Origin: Candidatus Micrarchaeota archaeon
GTDB taxonomy: Archaea; Micrarchaeota; Micrarchaeia; Norongarragalinales; SBBD01
DNA: 26,388 nucleotides
Direction of reading: 5' to 3'
Assembly: GCA_038046605.1 (NCBI GenBank)
Contig: JBBSVW010000086.1
Span: 1-26,388 of the forward strand
The position numbers and the translations under genes were made by a program. Positions within the stretch are counted from its first letter, which is position 1. Every line of letters starts with the position of its first letter. Below are positions 7,194 to 17,960 of the stretch, in pieces. The notes below the pieces were generated by a model. It was not told the DNA's origin. It did not search any database and saw nothing but the letters and a program-made list of their open reading frames with translations.

Positions 7194-8651
7194 GTGGTAA
7201 AATTGGAATATTCCTTTAGGGAACTAATGGAGAAAGCAAGGGAAAAAACCAATTGGAATTATTTGGGCAAATGGGTCCAGCCACCGCTTTTCACCTCGTA
7301 TTGGCGAAATTTTGGCGAAAGGGATGGCTATTTGGCACTTGGCCTTCCGGAAATTTCCGGCAGCCTGCTTTACCTTGACGGGCATCACCTAATGCTTTCG
7401 CGGGAGGTTTTGTTGCTTGAGGAAGGCGCAACAAAGGCGCTTATTGAAGAGGATAGGGGATTTTTCCAGAAAATTTTCAGGGAATCGGATAGGATAACAA
7501 AAAATTACCTCAAATTCACGCAGGGGATGAAATTTGATGGATCAAGCGCGGGGGATGTTTTTAGGGAATTTTCAAGCAAAACCGATGAAATGTTTTGCCC
7601 ATGGATGGCTGCATTCCTTTTGGGCCCATTTGTCACAAGATTCCTTGATTTGGAACTTGAGAAGGAAAACCTCATCCAAATGGACCTGCTTTCCCACTTC
7701 AACCTGCCCAGGCCCACATTCCTAATTCAACAGGAACGGGAGGTGCGCGCATTCAAAAAGCAGTTTGAGGCTCTTGAAATTTCCCATATGCTTGAGGAGC
7801 CCCCAAAACGCGCCATAACAATGCTCATGAACACCCATCCGCAGCTTGCCAGAGGCCTCAAATTCCACATGGCGGAATACGAATGGGTGGGAACGCACCA
7901 TTGCTGGGGGGATCCGTTAACCCCCGAAAGGCTGTTTTTTCAGATTAGGGAGGCAATAAATGCCCCAAGAGCCCAGAGCAGGGAAATAGCCATTTCAGGC
8001 AGGCTCGAATACCTCATTTCCTTGGTGAAGGAATTTGCGTATTGGAGGCAATTTTGCGCGGAATGCTCCGCAATTGGCCTATTCAGGGCAAGGGGGCTTC
8101 TAAAAGAGGCAGCAAGCCATTTGGGCATTGGCTATGATGATATTATTTGGCTGACAAAAGGTGAAATATCCAAGGCGCTTGAAAAAAATTCACGCCAGCC
8201 ATTGGCAAAAGTAAGGGGCCGGCGAAAAATTTACGGTTATTTTCCGGATGGGGAAGGGGAGGAGGTAATCGGGGGGGGAAAGGTAACCCAGCTCATAGCA
8301 CGGCTTGTGCCAAAATTCGATTTCGAGCAAAAGCAGCTTTATGGAACTGTTGGAAGCATGGGCGAGGCAAAGGGCAGGGTATTTGTCGCCTTCACCCCGC
8401 TTGAGGCAATCCCAATGAGAAAAGGGGACATTTTGGTTGTCCCCCAAACAACACCCGATTATGTGATGGTCATGAAGAAGGCGGCGGCAATTGTCACCGA
8501 TGAGGGGGGGATCACATGCCACGCCGCAATTGTCAGCAGGGAACTAGGCATCCCCTGCATCGTTGGGACAAAAATAGGGACCAGCATGCTAAAAACGGGC
8601 GATAGGGTTGAAGTGGACGCCAATCGGGGTATTATTCGCAAATTAGATTGA
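7194..8651 (+). CDS. Protein with a C-terminal PEP-utilising enzyme mobile (phospho-His) domain
   Basis: GDILV..TTPDY..AAIVTDEGGITCHAAIVSRELGIPCIVG. The N-terminal ~370 aa are unassigned; no PEP synthase ATP-grasp domain recognised. Confidence 0.85.
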   Translation: MVKLEYSFRELMEKAREKTNWNYLGKWVQPPLFTSYWRNFGERDGYLALGLPEISGSLLYLDGHHLMLSREVLLLEEGATKALIEEDRGFFQKIFRESDRITKNYLKFTQGMKFDGSSAGDVFREFSSKTDEMFCPWMAAFLLGPFVTRFLDLELEKENLIQMDLLSHFNLPRPTFLIQQEREVRAFKKQFEALEISHMLEEPPKRAITMLMNTHPQLARGLKFHMAEYEWVGTHHCWGDPLTPERLFFQIREAINAPRAQSREIAISGRLEYLISLVKEFAYWRQFCAECSAIGLFRARGLLKEAASHLGIGYDDIIWLTKGEISKALEKNSRQPLAKVRGRRKIYGYFPDGEGEEVIGGGKVTQLIARLVPKFDFEQKQLYGTVGSMGEAKGRVFVAFTPLEAIPMRKGDILVVPQTTPDYVMVMKKAAAIVTDEGGITCHAAIVSRELGIPCIVGTKIGTSMLKTGDRVEVDANRGIIRKLD

Positions 8652-8665
8652 TTCGCAAATCAAAT

Positions 8666-8822
8666 TAAGGGGGTAGTGGGCAAGCGTCTTGGGGGAAGTA
8701 TCCCCCGCTACCCTTGGAAGCATCCCCCTCCTAATTCGTAAATGAAATTAGGAAGGGTAAGGCAACCCGATAGGGAAACGTAGTTGCCCTTGGGGTTGGG
8801 GGATTATCCCCCTAGCGGTGTC
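8666..8822. other. Multi-hairpin intergenic element 1, ending CCCCCTAGCGGTGTC
   Basis: Stems GGGTAGTGGG/CCCGCTACCC, CAAG/CTTG, GGGGA/TCCCC, TCCTAATT/AATTAGGA, GGCAAC/GTTGCC and GGGGGA/TCCCCC. Confidence 0.75.
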
Positions 8823-8864
8823 GTGGAAGTCGACGCCAATCGGGGTATTATACGGAAGTTGTGA
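8823..8864 (+). repeat. Recoded duplicate of the 3' end of the PEP-domain gene (VEVDANRGIIRKL*)
   Basis: Aligns with 8607..8645: 13/13 identical amino acids, six nucleotide differences, all at third codon positions. Confidence 0.9.
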
Positions 8865-8915
8865 ATTGAAGCCATATGTTGCTAAATTTGGCAAAATATT
8901 TTTATCGAATGATTG

Positions 8916-9530
8916 TCATTGCTTGATTTTTATTGCCCCCTGCCTGACAATCTTTGGCGTTTTTCCCGTGCAATCAACTATTGTGCTTGGCGGGAAGGGA
9001 GGGATGTTGCCGCCATCAATTATGATATCCGCAACCTGCGCAAAATCCCTGATTGCAATTCCGGAGGAGTATATTTCCCCCGCGCCGGAAAGGTTGGCGC
9101 TGGTTGCAGTTATGGGCTTGTTGAAATTATAAGTGATTGCAATTATTGCGGGATGCGAGGAGATCCGGATCCCAATCGTTTTCCCTTTTGAAAGGTTATT
9201 GGCGAGTTTGAATGGAGTTTTCTTCTCAAGGATGAGGGTTAGGGGACCCGGAAGGTATTTTTTTGCAAGCCTTGAGGCAAGCGGGGTTAGTGCCGCGTAT
9301 TTTGATGCCATTTCCATATCAAATGCGAAAATGGATAGCGGTTTTGTAAAATCGCGCGCCTTTAGCCGGAATACTTTCTCAACTGCCTTGGGATTCGAGG
9401 CATCAGCAAGCATCCCATAGCTGGTTTCGGTTGGGGCAATTACTATTCCACCACCGGCAAGGGCATAGACACATTGCGAAAATGCGGTTTCATCTTCCAA
9501 ATTAAGGATTTTTGCGTGCATTTTTACCAT
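8916..9530 (-). CDS. tsaC: L-threonylcarbamoyladenylate synthase (TsaC/Sua5 YrdC domain)
   Basis: PTETSYG, K-x-R..KP, PGPLT, IGIRI, TATSANLSG and PSTIVD motifs. Start is ATG 9530 or 9521. Confidence 0.92.
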   Translation of the reverse strand: MVKMHAKILNLEDETAFSQCVYALAGGGIVIAPTETSYGMLADASNPKAVEKVFRLKARDFTKPLSIFAFDMEMASKYAALTPLASRLAKKYLPGPLTLILEKKTPFKLANNLSKGKTIGIRISSHPAIIAITYNFNKPITATSANLSGAGEIYSSGIAIRDFAQVADIIIDGGNIPPFPPSTIVDCTGKTPKIVRQGAIKIKQ

Positions 9531-9648
9531 CTTCGGACAATTTAGGCATCCCATTAGTGGGGGATCATCCTTAGGCAAAGAAAAAACAATTTTTGTCAGC
9601 AACCCCTTGCATCCGCCCCACTTATAGCCAATTAGTTGCACTTGCGGC

Positions 9649-10200
9649 TTAAAATAGCTCTCGCATCATGTCCGAAAGCGACTTGCGCATGCTTTCGTGC
9701 TTTTCCTCATGCCATTTGATGAACTCCTCTGCGAAGAGGATGGGGAGGAGGATGAGCGAATAGAAAAGCAATGCCACCCCCTGCGTTGTCACAAAATCGT
9801 ATTTTTCAATTGGCTGCGGGATAGGCAGGTCGGAAAACGAGTAGGCCGCATTCGTTAGGGGATAAAGCAGCCTGATATCGCCATAGAACATGTCCGCAAC
9901 CAGATGCCCGGTCAGCATTGCCAGCAAAACCAGGAAGAATTTTTGTGCCTCGATGCCGTAGGGCTTTTTGTTTCGTTCATAATGGTAGGCAAGGTAGAAT
10001 AGCAAAAGGGGCAGGAAAAATGCCACCCAAATGTTATGGAGGGGCTTGATATAGGACGGATCCCAGCCAAGGAAATGGTCGAAATCAATTGCAACGGCAA
10101 AGCTTGCGGCAAATATCACAAAGGGCAGCTTGTGCTTTTTGTGCAAATCAACCGCAAGGGCGGCAATTATTGAAAATATGAAGTGGAAGAGGGAATCCAT
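9649..10200 (-). CDS. Membrane-bound metal-dependent hydrolase-like protein
   Basis: MDSLFH.., IDFDH, LHN, GHLVAD and LLYP motifs. True start is likely ATG 10200; the longer ORF-track extension is antisense to nadM. Confidence 0.7.
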   Translation of the reverse strand: MDSLFHFIFSIIAALAVDLHKKHKLPFVIFAASFAVAIDFDHFLGWDPSYIKPLHNIWVAFFLPLLLFYLAYHYERNKKPYGIEAQKFFLVLLAMLTGHLVADMFYGDIRLLYPLTNAAYSFSDLPIPQPIEKYDFVTTQGVALLFYSLILLPILFAEEFIKWHEEKHESMRKSLSDMMRELF

Positions 10201-10318
10201 GGGAAATACCACATATTGCGGATTGGAATGGGGGCTCCCGAAGGGAAAACCCTTAAAATTCGCACGACAACATGTAATCCCGAGATGGTTTTTATTCATT
10301 TGCATCTTTAAGGTGTTC

Positions 10319-10855
10319 ATGGATAGCAAAACAATGGCGAGCGCAACGACGGATGCGAAGGATGGGAAAACCGCCCTTGTAATCGGACGGTTCCAGCCTT
10401 TCCATAGCGGGCATTTGGAAGCGGTGGAGGGGATCCTAAAAAGGCATTCGAGGCTGCTTCTTGCCATAGGCAGCGCGCAGGAGTCCCGCACCCCAAAAAA
10501 CCCTTTTTCTTCAAAGGAAAGGAAGGGGATGATTGCCGCTTGCCTAAAAAAACGGGGCATTTTGCCAAGGATAAAAATAATCCTGCTTGATGATGAAAAC
10601 CACCATGAGAGGTGGGTGAGGGGGGTTTTGCAAATCGCAAAGGATGCCGATGTTGTGTATTCCGGAAACTGGCTTGTGCAAAGATTGCTCGGGGGCAGGT
10701 ACGCGGTGCATACAATGAAATCGAGCGTAAAAATTTCAGCCTCGCAAATTAGGGAACTGATGAAAAAGGGGGATGAAAAATGGCAGCGATTTGTGCCCAA
10801 GGAAATTTCTGAATACATCCTCACGAAAGGGCTGGAGAAAATTTGGCCCTTTTGA
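10319..10855 (+). CDS. nadM: Nicotinamide-nucleotide adenylyltransferase (archaeal NMNAT)
   Basis: IGRFQPFHSGH, IGSAQES..NPF..ER, ISASQIR and W..VP motifs; AGGTG RBS before ATG 10319. Confidence 0.9.
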   Translation: MDSKTMASATTDAKDGKTALVIGRFQPFHSGHLEAVEGILKRHSRLLLAIGSAQESRTPKNPFSSKERKGMIAACLKKRGILPRIKIILLDDENHHERWVRGVLQIAKDADVVYSGNWLVQRLLGGRYAVHTMKSSVKISASQIRELMKKGDEKWQRFVPKEISEYILTKGLEKIWPF

Positions 10856-10983
10856 AATTGCCAATTATACCCAAATCAAGGGGCCGGACAATTTAGCATT
10901 GGGATTTAGGCGGAATCAGCTATCCAAATTACCTGCCTGAAAAATTTGGCGAAGGGAACCGCTGTTGAAATTACCAATATTTT

Positions 10984-11553
10984 TTAGGGCAATTGCTTCT
11001 TGAACCAATCCCCGAATTTCCTAACTGCAATTGCACGGTGTGAAAATTCGTTTTTTTGCGCTTTGCCCATCCTGCTAAGGCGAACCTTTTTCCCTTCCGG
11101 GATGAAGATTGCCTCATATGGAAGCTTGGGGTTTTGGAATTTTGGCGAATCCGGCGCATTTGTGATTTTGCCCCTGCAGATCCCCTGAAAAGTGCGCACG
11201 CTTTTCCCATCAAAGTATGCCACGATGGTTTTGAAATAAGCCCCCCGCTTTTTGCCCTTAAGAAGGGCCAAAATGCCCCCATACCCTATGGAGCGGAAAA
11301 CAAAGGAGGGGAAAACGCCGGGGAAACTCGGGTAGGCGGAAAAATATACTCCCGTGTCTTCCGCGATCACGGGCTTGTTGATTAGCATATGGGCGGTTTT
11401 CGCCTTCCCTATTGCCACCTGCCTTTGGTCCTCCGAACGGATTTCGGATAGGTCGGCTTTGAGGGCAATTGCCTTTATCCCCATCCGGGCCAGAATTTGT
11501 GAAACCTCAAGTATTTTTTCGGGATTGGAAGATGCGAAATGGATTGTTTTCAT
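10984..11553 (-). CDS. rdgB: Non-canonical purine NTP pyrophosphatase (RdgB/HAM1)
   Basis: FASSNPEK, AEDTG, FPG, IFIP and SHR motifs. Confidence 0.92.
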   Translation of the reverse strand: MKTIHFASSNPEKILEVSQILARMGIKAIALKADLSEIRSEDQRQVAIGKAKTAHMLINKPVIAEDTGVYFSAYPSFPGVFPSFVFRSIGYGGILALLKGKKRGAYFKTIVAYFDGKSVRTFQGICRGKITNAPDSPKFQNPKLPYEAIFIPEGKKVRLSRMGKAQKNEFSHRAIAVRKFGDWFKKQLP

Positions 11554-11649
11554 TTTGACGTGCCTCAAAGTGCCAAATGGTTATTGGCGCAACATTCCAG
11601 CAAACTAATCACTTGCTCAATTGCCCCCCCCTAGTTTATTCAAAACGCC

Positions 11650-14412
11650 CTAGCTGCCGCTTACATCCAGTGTACCCCTCCGTTTTGCGACATATTTTAT
11701 GATCTCCTCAACGACCAGTATGGAAGAACTTATGATGATGATGGAGGCCCATTCCAATCCCGAAAGGGGGACCGTCTTGAAAATCTGCTCAAGCGCGCCG
11801 GTTTGCACAATCAGGAATTGTGAAATAAACCCAACCAGCATTGCGCCAATTAAGTACCGATTATTGAATACGCCAATCTTAAGCAGGGGATCGTGATCAG
11901 CATGCCAGCTTAGGGCGATGAATAGCTGGAAGAAAACAAGGAGGCTAAAGGCAGCTGTCCGCGCTTTTTCCAAATTATCCGTTTCCATTTGGTACCAGAA
12001 CATCCCAAGGGTCACGATCGTTATGAATACTCCGATGAAAATCAGCTTTTCCAACGCATTCCGGGTAAGGACTGGCTTCTTGGGATCCCTTGGCTTCCTT
12101 CTCATGATCCCCTCAGCTTTGGTATCCATCGCAAGCGCAAGCGCGGGCAAGGAATCCGTCGCCAAATTCATCCACAGGATTTGTATTGGGAGGAGGGGCG
12201 AATCCCAGCCAACCATAATGGCTATGAAAATTATGAGCACTTCGCCAATGTTGCATGAGATTAGGTATTTTACCGATTTAAGTATGTTGTCAAAAATTAT
12301 GCGGCCTTCCTCTACGGCAGCAACAATCGAGGCAAAATTGTCATCCACAAGAACCATGTCCGCGCTCTCCTTTGCAACATCAGTGCCGGATATGCCCATT
12401 GCAACCCCAATATCGGATTTTTTTATTGCAGGCGCATCATTCACCCCATCCCCGGTCATTGCAACGATTTCGCCCTTTGCCTGCAGGGCGGAGACGATTT
12501 TCAGCTTGTGCTCGGGTGAAACCCGTGCATAAACGGATATCTCCTCGACTATTTTTTCAAATTCCTCATCTGGCATCCCTTCAAGCTCCCTTCCAGTCAT
12601 GACCTTGTTTTTGCCCTCCTCATAAATGCCCAATTCCTTGGCTATGGACCTTGCAGTAAGCTCGTTATCACCGGTGATCATTATTGTTTTGATCCCCGCC
12701 TGCTTGCAGATTGCTATTGCATCCTTTGCCTCCTGCCTTGGCGGGTCCATCATGGCTATTAGCCCAAGGAACACGAGCTGTAATTCCACCTCCCCAATTG
12801 AAAAATCCTTGCGCTTTTTGGTTTTGAGTATGCGCATTGCAAATCCAAGGACGCGAAGGCCCCTGGATGCATATTCCGCATTTTTATTCAAATAGAGCTG
12901 TTTTGAAAGGGCGTCCATTTTTACCGGGCATCCATCCTTCATAACCTGGGTTGATTTTTCAAGGATGAATTCAGGCGCCCCCTTCGAATATGCAACAAGC
13001 CCTGCTTCCTCCTCATCATAAATTACACTCATCATCTTCCTTGCAGAATCAAATGTGAGTTCCTCGATCTTTTTACGCCTCTTCTTTTCGGTTAGGTAAT
13101 CAAGCCCCGCCTTTTTCCCCGCCACAAGAAGGCACGCCTCAGTTGGGTCGCCAATTATCGATACTGTTTTGCCTAAGGAATTTAGGGAGGCATTATTGCA
13201 AAGGAGGGCGCAATGCATAAGCTCCTGGAAGTTTTGTTCATATTGGGCATCGATATTCAATCCGCTTTCGGCAATGATTTCGCCATTTAGCTCGAAACCT
13301 CCGCCTGTTACCGAATATGACTTGTTGTTTGTGAATATGCCACGGACGGTCATTTCATTGCGCGTAAGCGTTCCGGTCTTATCCGAGCATATGACCGTTG
13401 CAGAGCCAAGCCCTTCGGCAGCTGGAAGGCGCCTAATTATGGAGTTTCGCCTCGCCATTCGCTGAACGCCAATTGCTAGGGAAATTGTAACAACAGCTGG
13501 GAGCCCCTCAGGAATTGCTGCAACTGCAAGGCTTACGGCAATCAGGAAAAGTTCGAGTATTTTATCAAAATTTAGGCCGGCACTCAAATATGCGCGGGCA
13601 ATGCCGACAACGAACACAAGCGCCACTGCCCCAATTGCAATTTTCCCAAGCTGCTTGCCTAAAGCCTCCAATTTCTCCTGCAGGGGCGTTTGCTCATCCT
13701 CAATTGTCTGCACCAGATCAGCAATTTTGCCTATTTGCGTTTGCGCACCGGTAAAGCAGACTACCGCCCGCGCCTCCCCCTTGGTGACAAGGGTGCTCAT
13801 GAAAACCATGTTGCGCCAATCGTTCACAACTGATTTTTCGGAAATGATCAGGTCGGCTTTTTTGGAGGCAGGCTCGCTTTCGCCAGTTAGGCTTGCCTCC
13901 TCAATTTCTAGATTGTGGGATTCGAGAAGCCTGGCATCAGCTGGGACTTTGTCCCCTTCATGGAGGATAATGATATCTCCAGGGACAAGGTCTGCAGTAG
14001 GAATTTCCGATTCGATACCCATCCGGAGCACTTTTGCTTTGGGGGTGACCATTTTGCGAAGCGCTTCGATTGCCTTGCCGGCCTTATGCTCCTGATAAAC
14101 CCCGATGATGGCGTTTATCACTACGATTGCAATGATCGCAATCGAGTCAATGTACTCTGGCTCTGGCGAAAAATATGAGGCGATTGCGGAGATTATGGAT
14201 GCCGCAATCAGTAGGAGGATTACAAAATCCTTGAATTCGCCAATGAACATTTCAAGGATTGTTTTCTTCTTGCGTTCCTTTAGGGTGTTGGGGCCATATT
14301 TCAATAGGCGCAGCGAGGAATCGGATGCGCTTAGGCCCTCCCTTGTGGCATTTAGCCCCTTTAGCGCCTCTTCAACTGTAAGGGATTGGAAACCAGCGGC
14401 AGTTTGGGGCAT
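11650..14412 (-). CDS. Cation-transporting P-type ATPase, P2A (Ca2+) type
   Basis: TGES, IPEGLP, DKTGTLT, KGAPE, TGDN, GDGVNDAP and QILWMNLATD motifs. Confidence 0.95.
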   Translation of the reverse strand: MPQTAAGFQSLTVEEALKGLNATREGLSASDSSLRLLKYGPNTLKERKKKTILEMFIGEFKDFVILLLIAASIISAIASYFSPEPEYIDSIAIIAIVVINAIIGVYQEHKAGKAIEALRKMVTPKAKVLRMGIESEIPTADLVPGDIIILHEGDKVPADARLLESHNLEIEEASLTGESEPASKKADLIISEKSVVNDWRNMVFMSTLVTKGEARAVVCFTGAQTQIGKIADLVQTIEDEQTPLQEKLEALGKQLGKIAIGAVALVFVVGIARAYLSAGLNFDKILELFLIAVSLAVAAIPEGLPAVVTISLAIGVQRMARRNSIIRRLPAAEGLGSATVICSDKTGTLTRNEMTVRGIFTNNKSYSVTGGGFELNGEIIAESGLNIDAQYEQNFQELMHCALLCNNASLNSLGKTVSIIGDPTEACLLVAGKKAGLDYLTEKKRRKKIEELTFDSARKMMSVIYDEEEAGLVAYSKGAPEFILEKSTQVMKDGCPVKMDALSKQLYLNKNAEYASRGLRVLGFAMRILKTKKRKDFSIGEVELQLVFLGLIAMMDPPRQEAKDAIAICKQAGIKTIMITGDNELTARSIAKELGIYEEGKNKVMTGRELEGMPDEEFEKIVEEISVYARVSPEHKLKIVSALQAKGEIVAMTGDGVNDAPAIKKSDIGVAMGISGTDVAKESADMVLVDDNFASIVAAVEEGRIIFDNILKSVKYLISCNIGEVLIIFIAIMVGWDSPLLPIQILWMNLATDSLPALALAMDTKAEGIMRRKPRDPKKPVLTRNALEKLIFIGVFITIVTLGMFWYQMETDNLEKARTAAFSLLVFFQLFIALSWHADHDPLLKIGVFNNRYLIGAMLVGFISQFLIVQTGALEQIFKTVPLSGLEWASIIIISSSILVVEEIIKYVAKRRGTLDVSGS

Positions 14413-14518
14413 TCTTATCGGAACCAGTAAGGGAAAAAGGGTATTTATGAGTTTCCATGGAACAAATGCGGAATGATGAACAGCGTATGTGCAAACATAT
14501 ATCGGAAACGAAATTTGA

Positions 14519-15457
14519 TCAAACAGTTTTAACCGGGTTCATTTTAAGCTCTTGGCGTGATTTCCAGAAAAAGTACCCAATGATTGCAATCGTTGCAACA
14601 GGTGAAACCCAGGCGGGGATGTGGGCGCCAAAAGCGTCCATGATCATGACGGCCCCCAGGATGAAAATCGCGTACATGGCGCCGTTTTTCAGGTATTTGT
14701 ACTTCTTCACGTTTTCGACGTTGCGGATGGTCATTTCCCGAACGACGAAAGCGCCGATGCCATTGCCAATGAGGATTAGGGGGACGGATAAGGTGAATGC
14801 AAATGCGCCAATTACCCCATCAATTGAAAACGAGGCATCTATCACCTCCAAATAGAGGATTTTGCTCCAGTCACTCATCTTTCCGGAGCCATCCAGCATC
14901 TCCCTTTCCTTAAGCTCGGCGTTTTGCCTAAAGCCATGGGTGATGAAAAAAGCGGTGGAGCCAACGACTGCGGAAAAGGCCATCAGGGGATTTACCTGCA
15001 ACGAATACCAGGTGACAACCGCAAGAAAGATGGAAACAACCGCGTAAAACCAAACGCCGTATTTTTCAAATGCCACTTCCCCCTTCAAGCCGTAATTTTT
15101 CTTCTCCATGAATAGCCAATGGAAGAACAGGAAAATAAGGAAAACCCCACCGCCAACGAGGAGGATTGGCGCGGAGGCCTCGATGGATTTTGCAACCGCC
15201 GGATCGGCGCTAAACATGGCCGTGAATGCGCCTTCAATCCCAAGGGTAGGGTTTGATAAAAATATTATTGCAAGAGGAAGCAGGCCGCGCATCAGGAATA
15301 CCGCAATTAGAAGCCCCCAGAAAAGGAACCACCTTCTTGCCCATGGCGACATCTTGCGCAAAATCTCCGCATTGATGACGGCATTGTCGAAGCTGCTGAC
15401 GGATTCGAATAGGATTAAGCCTACGATAGTTAGAAGTGCGGGGAATAGGTCGAACAT
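14519..15457 (-). CDS. DUF475 / TerC-like integral membrane protein
   Basis: FESVSSFDNAVINA and LYLEVIDASFSIDGVIGAFA motifs; ATG at 15457. Confidence 0.85.
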   Translation of the reverse strand: MFDLFPALLTIVGLILFESVSSFDNAVINAEILRKMSPWARRWFLFWGLLIAVFLMRGLLPLAIIFLSNPTLGIEGAFTAMFSADPAVAKSIEASAPILLVGGGVFLIFLFFHWLFMEKKNYGLKGEVAFEKYGVWFYAVVSIFLAVVTWYSLQVNPLMAFSAVVGSTAFFITHGFRQNAELKEREMLDGSGKMSDWSKILYLEVIDASFSIDGVIGAFAFTLSVPLILIGNGIGAFVVREMTIRNVENVKKYKYLKNGAMYAIFILGAVMIMDAFGAHIPAWVSPVATIAIIGYFFWKSRQELKMNPVKTV

Positions 15458-15648
15458 AATTGCGCATACCGGTTGGTAAATATACGTGAGAAATAGGGAA
15501 GGGGGGATTTTTAATGTGTTTGCCTGCAATCAATGAAAAAAAGTAGTTCGATCATCATTCGCCGGGATTGCATGGAGCCCCCCCATTGCCAATATGGCGG
15601 CAATGATGCCCACTTTTTCACGATTTTAATATTTTTCTATTTATCAAA

Positions 15649-16200
15649 TTAATGGGCGCGGGCATTGCGCTCCCGTTCAATATCCCGCAATAACCTATCG
15701 GAACTCCCAGGATGGATATTGTCAAGAAGGGCCGTAATCTCCCGATTGCTCCTCCTATCGATTGGATTTTCCTTATCCAGGCCCATTAGCGCCCTTCTGG
15801 CAAAATTCTGGACCCTAATTTCGCGCTCGACGCGGAAATTCAACGAATCCTCAAGCATTACCCGCCCTGCCCTTCCTATTATCCCCTCCAATTTCTTACG
15901 TATTGTTTCAATTTCAGCATTGGGGCCCCTTTGCGCATCAAATCTAAATCTTTGGGCATGCGCGTATTGGATATGCGCCAAATCGCGCGCGAGATAACTT
16001 TTCAGCAAATCCAATTTGTACCCGATAACTGCAGTGCGCGCTTTTTCCAACTTTTTCAGGGTATCTTTAGAGGACGTTTTTATTATGGAAGCCGGAAGGA
16101 ACTCCAAATCCAGCCTTAAATACCGCTCAACATGCCTCTTGCGCAAGCCCGGAAGAAATGCAAAAACATCGGTTAGCCTGTTTGGCATGCGCATTATCAC
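15649..16200 (-). CDS. Hypothetical basic helical protein
   Basis: 183 aa ORF filling an intergenic gap; AGGTG near the start; exact start uncertain. Confidence 0.6.
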   Translation of the reverse strand: MIMRMPNRLTDVFAFLPGLRKRHVERYLRLDLEFLPASIIKTSSKDTLKKLEKARTAVIGYKLDLLKSYLARDLAHIQYAHAQRFRFDAQRGPNAEIETIRKKLEGIIGRAGRVMLEDSLNFRVEREIRVQNFARRALMGLDKENPIDRRSNREITALLDNIHPGSSDRLLRDIERERNARAH

Positions 16201-16318
16201 CTAAAAAAGCAAGTGCTTATGCTTAAGCATGCTTAATAATAATTATGTAAAATTAGAAATGGGGCGTTTAACCGCTGCCTGCCTGGAATTTCCCTGCGAG
16301 GCTTTCAACGCCTATTGC

Positions 16319-16840
16319 CTATCGCTTCCTTCCCTTAGACTTGCCCGCCTTGGCTTCTTTTGCCTCCTTTCCTTTGGGCTTCCTTCCAAGCTTGCTTGAA
16401 AATCCCGTCCGGATTCCGCTTGAGGCGATTTTCCTTTGTGAATTTGAGCGCATTGGCCTAAGTTTCACCGGCCCAACCTCATCAGAATCGCCCCTCTCCC
16501 GTTTTCCATTGGAAATAAGCGAAAAATTCATCTTTTCCATCTGCGCAAACTTTTTGCGGTCCTCGATGTCTGTTTTCAACTGCTTTATCCTTGCGCGCTT
16601 TATTGCAATTGCCTCCTCAACATCCTCAACGCCTAAAGAGTAGACTAGGTAATTTGAAAAGCGGATGGGATTAACACCAACTTGAGTCTTGACGTGCTTG
16701 AGATCCTCAGGAGAGGCGGTTTTTAGGACAACGGTTGAATTGCACTCCTCACAAGGCTTGTATTTCATGGAAGCTTCCCAAACCTGCTTTGCGTTGCAGC
16801 CGCCGCAATTGACAATGAATAACTTGACAGTCTCGTTCAT
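16319..16840 (-). CDS. Hypothetical protein with N-terminal zinc ribbon and Lys/Arg-rich tail
   Basis: CGGC...CEEC, central coiled segment and basic C-terminus; GAGGTG RBS. Confidence 0.75.
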   Translation of the reverse strand: MNETVKLFIVNCGGCNAKQVWEASMKYKPCEECNSTVVLKTASPEDLKHVKTQVGVNPIRFSNYLVYSLGVEDVEEAIAIKRARIKQLKTDIEDRKKFAQMEKMNFSLISNGKRERGDSDEVGPVKLRPMRSNSQRKIASSGIRTGFSSKLGRKPKGKEAKEAKAGKSKGRKR

Positions 16841-17173
16841 GATCCCACCTCAAGCATACCCCACAATAGTGTTATAGAACCCCCATGTCACCACTGTGCA
16901 GCAGTATATTATGGTATAACCAATATAAATACCTTGCTAAAATTTGCCCCAATAAGGGCATAAAATGCATTAATACGAAAAGGACAAATTGGGAAAAAAG
17001 GTGAATTAGCCCGGAAAAATGTTGCCCGGCGATTTAATCCGTTTTTTCACGATAAATAGTTACGCTTTACCCCTAAATATCCTAGGGGTTTAACTTAAAG
17101 CTCGCATTTAAAAGATTTAAGGGCTTGAACTTTGGAAGAGTGGCAAAATTAGTTTGATGAGGCGATTAATTGC

Positions 17174-17785
17174 ATGAAAGCGTACCTGCTAATGGTTTTT
17201 GCTGCGTTCCTGCTTTTTGGATGCACAAGCAATAATCCTTCCCCTTCAGCCTTGCCATCAACCCAATTGGTAGATACGCTTCCTCCCATTTCAACGATTA
17301 CTACAAATCCTGGTGATAAAATGGCGGTAGCAAAAGGGGATACGGTTTTCGTTTGGTATTTGGGAATTTTGGATGATGGCACAACCTTTGACACAAACAT
17401 TGTGGCAGAAGCAAAGAAAGCAGGTACTTTTGATGCGGGAAGGCCCTATGAGACCCTTGATTTCCAGGTGGGCGCTGGCCAGATGATAAAAGGATTTGAT
17501 GCGGGAGTTGTAGGCATGAAGGAAGGGGAGACCAAAACCGTCAAGATGGCAGCCAAGGACGCATATGGGGAACTAAGGGCGGATCTAATCCAAGTAGTTC
17601 CACTAGCTGATTTAAAGAAAGCTGGAATTAATGCCTCAGAAGGGCAGATCATTGGCACGAGCACTGGCGCAAGGGGGGTAATCCGGAAAGTTGATTCGCA
17701 GAACGCAACAATTGATTTCAACCACTTCCTTGCCGGGCAGGCCTTGACGTTCAAGATTACTGTTGAAAAAATAACTAAAGCCTAG
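17174..17785 (+). CDS. FKBP-type peptidyl-prolyl isomerase (SlyD-like, IF domain) with lipoprotein-like leader
   Basis: GDTV..Y.G.LDDGTTFDT, VGAGQMIKGFD, DAYG and IDFNHFLAGQALTF motifs; LLFGC leader. Confidence 0.92.
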   Translation: MKAYLLMVFAAFLLFGCTSNNPSPSALPSTQLVDTLPPISTITTNPGDKMAVAKGDTVFVWYLGILDDGTTFDTNIVAEAKKAGTFDAGRPYETLDFQVGAGQMIKGFDAGVVGMKEGETKTVKMAAKDAYGELRADLIQVVPLADLKKAGINASEGQIIGTSTGARGVIRKVDSQNATIDFNHFLAGQALTFKITVEKITKA

Positions 17786-17885
17786 GGGGGGATAGAAGCG
17801 ACATACCAAAGACGGAGTCTTTGTATGTTAGTAGACCTTAAAGGTCTACGTAACACGAGTAAGGGGGTCTCCCCCTTAGTGTGTC
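17786..17885. other. Multi-hairpin intergenic element 2, ending CCCCCTTAGTGTGTC
   Basis: Hairpins ACATAC-C-AAAGAC/GTCTTT-GTATGT (17801-17828), GTAGACCT/AGGTCTAC (17831-17849) and TAAGGGGG/CCCCCTTA (17860-17878). Confidence 0.75.
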
Positions 17886-17960
17886 AACCACTTCTTGGCG
17901 GGGCAGCAATTGACCTTCAAAATTACGGTTGAGAAGATCACTAAAGCTTTGGGGTGTTGA
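17886..17960 (+). repeat. Recoded duplicate of the 3' end of the FKBP gene (NHFLAGQQLTFKITVEKITKALGC*)
   Basis: 17886..17948 aligns with 17720..17782: 20/21 identical amino acids, 50/63 identical nucleotides, nine synonymous codon changes and one A-to-Q change. Confidence 0.92.

Follow-up and report, generated by a model that had tools for sequence, protein, structure and literature searches.

Small hairpin elements between two alleles of the same gene end in a Micrarchaeota archaeon: an apparently undescribed mobile DNA family

We analyzed a 26,388-nt stretch of DNA (contig JBBSVW010000086.1, hereafter the window) from a host that we judged to be a groundwater Candidatus Micrarchaeota (DPANN) archaeon. 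Two genes in the window, one encoding a phosphoenolpyruvate (PEP)-utilising protein (locus 1) and the other an FKBP-type isomerase (locus 2), are arranged in the same way. The end of the gene is followed by a spacer that closes with a hairpin and the bases GTGTC, and directly after these the last 13 or 21 codons of the gene appear once more, in a further copy. A first-pass annotation, made from the letters alone, had described this layout at both loci, and our analysis confirms it. In what follows, Y1 is the end of the present gene, Y2 is the displaced copy, and E is the element between them (Table 1). Both spacers are copies of a small, non-coding, hairpin-forming family of mobile DNA found in one family of Micrarchaeota. 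We found no tRNA or transfer-messenger RNA gene in the window.

Table 1. Features of the two loci in the window
Feature	Position	Strand	Basis or remark
Target gene 1: 485-aa protein, C-terminal PEP-utilising 'mobile' domain, multi-copy family	7194..8651	+	Pfam PF00391, E-value 6.9e-27
Y1, locus 1: last 14 codons and stop, in frame with the gene	8607..8651	+	Sequence comparison
E copy, locus 1: composite 171-nt spacer	8652..8822	+	Match to covariance model R1 and junction motif
Y2, locus 1: displaced copy of the last 13 codons and stop	8823..8864	+	First base directly after GTGTC
Target gene 2: FKBP-type peptidyl-prolyl isomerase with FKBP26 IF domain	17174..17785	+	Pfam PF00254, PF22199
Y1, locus 2: last 21 sense codons of the present gene	17720..17782 (with stop, 17720-17785)	+	Sequence comparison
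E copy, locus 2: 103-nt three-hairpin form, ending in hairpin and GTGTC	17783..17885	+	One of 20 long variants
Y2, locus 2: displaced copy of the 21 codons, 3 further codons and stop	17886..17960	+	Taken as the original end of the resident gene

The spacer of locus 1 is composed of two E-like modules (8651-8717 and 8734-8798) and of the terminal hairpin with GTGTC (8798-8822). The modules score 41.8 and 37.1 bits against R1, a covariance model built from 20 short copies of E. When Y1 and Y2 are compared over their 13 sense codons, 7 are identical, 6 are synonymous and none is non-synonymous, and Y1 has one additional Asp codon ahead of its stop. The final codons of this Y1 look like the conserved left arm of E, and its last four 'recoded' codons are closer to that arm than to Y2. 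At locus 2, the first three bases of E (TAG) are the stop codon of the FKBP gene, which leaves a spacer of 100 nt after the stop (17786-17885). R1 matches this element at 17853-17884, and a near twin with a compensatory change in hairpin 1 lies on another contig of the genome (C28). The 21 sense codons comprise 11 identical, 9 synonymous and one non-synonymous pair (Ala/Gln). Y2 continues for three codons past the point where Y1 stops, and the two copies share no identical run longer than 9 nt. The codon comparison of the two loci therefore bears out the earlier count of 15 synonymous codons among the 16 changed sense codons. Both spacers open with TA(A)GGGGG..(T)AG. Two matches to the motif GGGGG-loop-CCCCC-T(T)AG-N1-2-GTGTC lie in the window (at 8798-8822 and at 17863-17885), against none in 100 dinucleotide-preserving shuffles. 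A genome scan with the strict motif, as the first-pass annotation had proposed, returned 9 matches at 7 loci.

The junctions are also present in Logan contigs, which come from a second assembler and from two samples (runs X1 and X2). This speaks against a strain-chimera assembly, the case that the first-pass annotation had held against itself. At locus 2, a single X1 contig spans 15351-18048, and thus the whole locus, with zero differences, and a single X2 contig spans 17283-17923. At locus 1, the contigs of both runs begin at 8704 and continue across the right junction; an X1 contig (8475-8683) crosses the left junction, and no listed contig bridges 8684-8703. X1 is possibly the source sample of the assembly, so that only X2 counts as independent. 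The same samples hold many related contigs at 85-95% likeness. Joints of an empty site were absent among the Logan contigs aligned to the window, which is not evidence of their absence.

The genome that hosts the window (G000, 1.64 Mb, estimated to be 90.7% complete) contains 79 nhmmer matches to E and 89 matches to R1 at E-value <= 0.001. The two spacers are therefore copies of one high-copy repeat family rather than a system of two loci, as had been thought at first. The other 10 genomes of the same GTDB family (f1) have 4-76 R1 matches each, and E matches at E-value <= 1e-6 were detected in all 11 genomes of the family (4-66 each). Outside it, R1 matches were found in only 4 of the 30 genomes that represent other families of the same order, with one or two each.

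The short form of E measures approximately 55-66 nt and consists of a conserved left arm, a short linker and a hairpin. The left arm carries TAA/TAG stop codons and a G-run; in the hairpin, a 3x3 internal loop separates an outer GACAC/GTGTC stem from an inner G/C stem. At its right, E ends exactly, with the outer stem closing on GTGTC (or GTGTT). The earlier proposal that the junction marks the defined terminus of a mobile entity is supported. The left boundary is loose, and E comes with a stretch of the DNA that lay upstream in the source locus. In the long forms (95-122 nt), two extra hairpins are inserted at one fixed point; their sequences vary while the pairing is kept. The covariance model, which had also been proposed as a check, shows that the hairpin covaries: in the 20 own copies, 7 of 13 pairs have compensatory changes. 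In 91 matches from relatives, 97.4% of the cells are paired as compared to 82.0% in shuffles, in an alignment that is fitted to the model and so favors the structure. Twelve of the 13 pairs change on both sides in these matches, none of 500 shuffles attains the observed values, and slid controls are 45-65% paired. By eye, an A/T-rich box in the left arm may be an archaeal promoter. The left arm also resembles the last codons and the stop of the multi-copy PEP-utilising genes, which is suggestive of a fossil of the flank carried from an early source locus.

Matches to the PEP-utilising domain number 17 in the own genome and reach 30 in relatives, where they are frequently arranged in tandem. 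In these multi-copy proteins, found at the window gene and at 16 other places, the N-terminal part is variable and the C-terminal swivel domain is conserved. A second small conserved module, in which a G-run hairpin of its own precedes a CCCTTGGAAGCA-like stretch, lies within or just upstream of several E copies (window 8677-8733; about 10400-10550 on C4, 3700-3850 on C5 and 35400-35560 on C79). This suggests a nesting of related modules.

Several searches for known relatives or carriers of E were negative. No Rfam family matched the window at gathering scores, nor six short E copies at E-value <= 5. Bulge-helix-bulge introns, kink-turns, H/ACA and C/D boxes and self-cleaving ribozyme cores were not seen by eye against their consensus, Rfam being the formal test. 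No terminal inverted repeats are present in the 20-copy alignment: the left arm and the right end are not reverse complements, and the internal hairpin in the 3' half is the sole inverted repeat. Of 90 matches to a left-end pattern in the own genome, 64 have a right end within 400 nt. For the other 26, the next right end is more than 400 nt away (13 matches) or missing (13), and these look mostly like chance hits of a permissive pattern and in a few cases like genuine copies that are truncated or long. This loose scan of the own genome for left and right ends found no long parent form with a transposase. A run of N breaks a cluster of E copies behind a gene end on C73 (near 13.9 kb, minus-strand view). 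Two exact degenerate E patterns had no match in IMG/VR, where viral carriers were sought. Full-text literature searches, supplements excluded, returned no description of an E-like element. The elements of Pyrobaculum that resemble transposable elements of the miniature inverted-repeat type (MITEs) and encode C/D small RNAs are, from the matched text, a different thing (PMC6009581), and the matched passages of a survey of archaeal insertion sequences do not mention the E family (PMC13343696). We conclude that E is an apparently undescribed mobile element with an unusual insertion signature, and that the layout seen in the window is real and non-random and does not stem from the assembly.

To characterize this signature, we examined 143 right ends of E, 59 in the own genome and 84 in 80 loci from ten relatives. 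A copy of the upstream flank follows the right end in 62 of them (20 in the own genome and 42 in the relatives), at a duplication score threshold of 14 that falls inside the range of the shuffled-control maxima (9-16). Window locus 2 escaped the automatic pass and was added by hand. Duplicated flanks thus accompany about 4 in 10 copies, and the downstream gene-end copies that the first-pass annotation had told its readers to look for are a recurrent feature of the family. The copy begins 0-8 nt past the right end, mostly at nt 0-1, and is 14-102 nt long and 67-100% identical to the flank; 9 of the 62 copies are exact and many have one to three mismatches. Most often the duplicated stretch is the 3' end of a gene on the same strand, and in other cases it is the start of a gene on the opposite strand or the 3' end of a tRNA gene. 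Duplicated flanks are little structured (mean z -0.6, and -0.15 around the junction), and we therefore rejected a target hairpin as the landing signal.

Among 63 duplications (G000 and loci L152-L231), two regularities were recorded. Of the 28 cases with a sense frame, 20 have the start of the duplication at a codon boundary, and the first base is G in 36 and A in 16 of all cases (G or A in 52 of 63). At the start of a gene on C90 (L251, G000:C90:12000-13800; 786-902 and 899-1327), the displaced 5' end and the reverse complement of E form an upstream frame of 38 amino acids. The stop of this frame overlaps the real start codon (ATGA), an overlap that would allow translational coupling.

The differences between Y1 and Y2 follow the codons. 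Over the 22 loci in which Y1 closes a sense open reading frame, the changed codons comprise 60 synonymous and 31 non-synonymous ones, whereas random single changes would give 19% synonymous (binomial P-value 5e-22). Third positions account for 76 of the 114 differing bases in the same loci. This bias supports the first-pass proposal that the two copies were different functional alleles and not a duplication that decayed. The clearest view comes from an array behind the T2SSE ATPase gene on contig C73, with the order Y1-E-Y2-E-Y3-E-Y4-E-Y5, where all five copies keep the frame and the stop. The ratio of synonymous to non-synonymous changes between displaced copies is 7:1 for Y3 and Y4, 7:2 for Y2 and Y3, and 8:2 for Y2 and Y4. 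Since displaced copies that lie behind a stop differ in a codon-wise manner, they did not diverge in place, and each was a functional gene end shortly before. The copies of the array differ from one another at 10-17 of 51 nt, as compared to 9-14 from the same gene of another species. When each Y was aligned by BLAST against the own genome, only local copies were found, except for one nearby copy on C42. Paralogs in the own genome are therefore not the donors.

The differences are also polarized. The density of Y1/Y2 mismatches is 0.077 in the leftmost fifth, next to the GTGTC junction, and reaches 0.16-0.19 toward the gene end. In several loci (for example C18 and L196) a long identical left block is followed by third-position differences at nearly every codon. 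Identical left blocks range from 0-2 to 77 nt, and neighbouring copies of the ATPase array share left blocks of 6, 9 and 17 nt before they diverge. This mosaic, identical on the left and diverged on the right, fits a Y2 that is wholly resident and a Y1 that is resident on its left and foreign on its right. Such polarity would not arise from an exchange with E-free alleles or from a simple single crossover of a circle with the chromosome.

Comparison of orthologous sites shows that E insertions come and go, and that they re-occupy the same place. For the ATPase gene the nearest relative is G005, whose protein is 91% identical over the last 299 residues; its site is clean and empty, and the gene that follows downstream is the same. 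In G003 that site holds one E, and the flank copy there begins at the same codon as in the own genome, with 5 differences in 51 nt. At the start of the C90 gene, E and a flank copy that begins at the same base are present in three species (C90, L194 and L170), with a different E subtype in each. The mismatches there amount to 13, 2 and 4 of 36 within the genomes and to 7-13 between the species. The site of C79 and L220 is also occupied in different species, again by different E subtypes, and the two duplications start approximately 8 nt apart.

We give an even chance to the reading in which E, carrying the neighbouring gene end along, enters the homologous gene of a diverged lineage and displaces the end that resides there. 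In this reading E is a non-coding, structured and non-autonomous mobile element. The moving unit would be the adjoining flank Y plus E, with its 3' end fixed by the hairpin. This unit would pair with the homologous flank of the target, and its right end would be joined at the point p where the carried flank, and hence the pairing, begins. The left junction would then be completed within the homology, restoring the resident sequence over a left block of variable length. The product would be gene-Y1-E-Y2, with Y2 as the resident, displaced end. Repeated events could stack displaced ends into arrays, and re-insertion inside one lineage could produce exact duplications. If the donated end came from the same gene in a diverged lineage, and both ends were functional until the event, Y1 and Y2 would differ mostly synonymously, and no selection for recoding would be needed. 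We infer the moving unit, the direction of transfer and every enzymatic step from these patterns.

The searches for an enzyme extend to the whole genome what the first-pass annotation had said of the window, where no cognate enzyme was visible: no match to the usual recombinases was found there either. The own genome has no match to Phage_integrase (PF00589), Resolvase (PF00239), TnpB (PF07282), RVT_1 (PF00078), IS110 DEDD or Cas1. The tyrosine-recombinase family is not matched at all, and hence no XerA-like gene was found, in this genome of an estimated 90.7% completeness. Y2_Tnp (PF04986) and Helitron_like_N (PF14214) had no match either, but the control genomes were silent too. One IS200-like Y1_Tnp gene (L001, G000:C9:22797-26150, 1456-1902 on the minus strand) lies in a GC-rich island, and two DDE_Tnp_1 genes on other contigs have no visible link to E. 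We rejected Y1_Tnp as the mobiliser of E because of its distribution and of the different hairpins that flank it. In the same region L001 (472-1305 on the minus strand, and 362-480), a copy of E abuts the 3' end of a tRNA gene, and next to this gene or within it there is a LAGLIDADG_3 frame, which possibly encodes an intron-borne homing endonuclease.

Several observations weigh against a unit of flank and E that moves by homology. At 81 of the 143 right ends no flank copy was detectable, so that the model covers some copies of E and not others, and a few of the shortest duplications may be due to chance as the score threshold overlaps the shuffled controls. To explain exact duplications of 19-46 nt at unrelated new targets, the model would have to be extended by another step. 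At one orthologous site the E subtypes differ between species, and they also differ within the C73 array; both facts are awkward for the idea that Y and E always travel together. The 31 non-synonymous codons count here as well, 16 of them coming from three loci with a doubtful frame (C9, L155 and L175). No circular or linear intermediate of E was seen. The blank searches for the six enzyme families point in the same direction, as does the Y1_Tnp gene, which occurs in only 5 of the 11 E-bearing genomes (it was not found in G002 or G005, with 76 and 54 E matches) and is flanked in the own genome by GC-rich hairpins of its own, unlike E. Relatives have no E at the orthologs of the two window genes, but with 44-57% protein identity they are too diverged to serve as empty sites. 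Finally, we found no near-identical second strain that would separate donor and resident alleles, the best FKBP matches being 55% identical among genome contigs and 58% among metagenome contigs.

We weighed five other explanations. One of them, unlikely in our view, separates the insertion from the exchange: a cut-and-fill insertion would first duplicate 14-102 nt exactly, and homologous recombination or conversion with diverged strains would later replace the gene and part or all of Y1, leaving Y2 as a fossil of the older allele. The nine exact flank copies and the many with one to three mismatches agree with it, as do the sharp breakpoints of the mosaic copies, which resemble conversion tracts, and the many related contigs in the same samples. 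However, such a Y2 should decay neutrally, whereas the displaced copies of the array keep frame and stop and differ synonymously (7:1, 7:2 and 8:2). Their divergence of 20-30% is at the level of species, like that between the own genome and G005, and homologous exchange is expected to be rare at this distance. Moreover, tracts from donors without E should strike the left and the right of Y equally, while mismatches rise from left to right, and the same duplication start recurs in different species. A miniature integrative element, in which a circle of E and one Y enters the homologous gene end by a single crossover with a recombinase acting in trans, is more doubtful still. It would produce the identical topology, with the element-borne end beside the gene and the resident end displaced behind the element. 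Boundaries that are inherited between species suit a unit with fixed ends, and the short identical block at the left of Y is where a crossover core would sit. Against it, the own genome has no match to a tyrosine or serine recombinase, the targets comprise more than 60 different sequences, which speaks against a sequence-specific core, and double-stranded circles of 70-270 bp are hard to form. The left blocks vary from 0-2 to 77 nt, and the longest identical run at locus 2 (9 nt) is too short for an ordinary homologous crossover, which in addition predicts no asymmetry between left and right. The first-pass annotation had spoken of remnants of integrative elements; the topology it proposed is formally right, but the copies are complete units of 55-171 nt and not remnants, and no enzyme of this kind was detected.

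Its one-ended HUH (histidine-hydrophobe-histidine) model comes nearest in logic to the moving unit that we favor, with a defined hairpin end and the other end set by homology, but its enzyme is unsupported. As an explanation of the data, in which E would be the terminator-type end for an HUH enzyme that co-mobilises upstream DNA by rolling circle, we consider it very unlikely. The exact hairpin end a few bases from the terminus, the loose other side that carries flank and the single Y1_Tnp gene in the genome are in line with it. Yet that gene has the patchy distribution and the unrelated hairpins described above, and no Y2_Tnp or Helitron-type protein was matched, although controls were silent. 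Rolling-circle elements make no target duplication, whereas one is present at 62 of the 143 right ends of E. An RNA scaffold with a guide, also taken from the first-pass annotation, is a poor fit, and its probability is small. In this scheme E would be transcribed with Y2 as a guide that cleaves the unrecoded allele while the recoded Y1 escapes, which amounts to a homing drive with rescue. A structured, covarying scaffold does lie directly before a stretch that matches the target, the A/T-rich box might be its promoter, and Y1 and Y2 differ at many loci. But the nine exact and the many near-exact copies would target themselves, the guides would measure 14-102 nt, tRNA ends and gene starts are duplicated too, and neither TnpB nor an Rfam family was matched. 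Arrays of several displaced ends have no guiding purpose. Chimeras of strains joined by the assembler across a repeat have a probability that we regard as nearly negligible. E is indeed a high-copy repeat and related strains occur in the samples, but the contigs of the second assembler carry the junctions without a difference in two samples. The same layout is found in 42 of 84 copies of ten other genomes, in some of them in 7-20 contigs, and a chimera would still require the duplication in both strains.

The reading in which E travels with a gene end can be taken further, and with a probability that we place clearly below even E is a new class of prokaryotic mobile element without any known kind of transposase. 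A gene end with its hairpin would pass between lineages diverged at the species level, find the same gene by homology, swap in its own working end and push the resident end downstream. If so, E would be a natural counterpart of a homing cassette with recoded rescue, and a tiny DNA parasite could invade essential genes at almost no cost by supplying a working copy of the piece that it displaces. The left arm would supply the stops, and the reverse strand could be read through, giving an upstream frame whose end falls on the real start codon. Stacked in arrays, the displaced ends would provide a readable record of past transfers among DPANN archaea and would imply frequent exchange of DNA between Micrarchaeota lineages that are 20-30% diverged. 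The reading would also point to a structure-specific cutting and joining activity in archaea that have none of the usual recombinases. Duplicate gene ends, truncated or extended C-termini and upstream frames are a source of confusion in the annotation of DPANN genomes.

We compared E to known systems. Like MITEs and other small repeats (Correia, RUP and the SM elements of Sulfolobus), E is short, non-coding, high-copy, restricted to a lineage, located at gene boundaries and flanked by target duplications. It differs from them in having no terminal inverted repeats and a variable duplication of 14-102 nt instead of a fixed one of 2-10 nt. Furthermore, its flank copies are often different alleles, and no transposase-bearing parent was found in the own genome. 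With the repetitive extragenic palindromic sequences (REP and REPIN) and their associated tyrosine transposase (RAYT, a Y1 HUH enzyme), E shares an imperfect palindrome with a GTAG-containing head and dozens of copies mostly just outside genes. However, the Y1 gene does not follow the distribution of E (it was found in 5 of 11 genomes), the hairpins around it are not of the E type, and REPs have no flank duplication. Four other classes were considered and rejected. A derivative of IS200/IS605 with a TnpB omega-RNA is contradicted by the lack of PF07282 and Rfam matches. Integron cassettes with attC sites (IntI, GTTRRRY core) would require a tyrosine recombinase, to which no match was found, and the ends of E read GACAC...GTGTC. 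A diversity-generating retroelement does not agree with the missing PF00078 match, nor with differences that involve all base types and are synonymous rather than adenine-specific. In a CRISPR array, the repeats would not differ in type and length as E copies within one array do, and Cas1 is not matched. E therefore fails the defining tests of MITEs, REP/RAYT, TnpB-associated elements, integrons, diversity-generating retroelements and CRISPR.

The closest likenesses are found among systems that replace or carry pieces of host genes. Integration of prophage e14 or phage 21 replaces the end of icd. As in these phages and in tRNA islands, an element-derived, synonymously different end lies beside the gene, the resident end is displaced and tandem integrations stack the ends; unlike them, E measures 55-171 nt, has no genes, finds no integrase in its genome, uses dozens of targets and leaves an identical block of variable length. 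Orphan C-terminal modules behind rhs and cdiA also recombine new gene ends at a conserved stretch and push the older ends downstream as an array, but there the ends encode different toxins and immunity genes, whereas those at E encode the same few residues and would be a by-product of the element. With Helitrons, IS91 and ISCR elements, E has in common one terminus set by a GC-rich hairpin that lies within a few bases of the end, as well as the carriage of neighbouring host DNA. Those elements capture downstream and not upstream DNA, make no duplication and need a Rep enzyme, which was not found here in searches whose controls were silent. Target-primed insertion of short and long interspersed elements (SINEs and LINEs) likewise combines an exact 3' end with a recognition stem-loop, a variable 5' extent with transduced flank and a variable target duplication; E differs in having no reverse transcriptase match, no A-tail and longer duplications. 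By analogy, E would resemble an integrative element equipped with a gene-end copy of its own, with ends like those of a one-ended or target-primed element.

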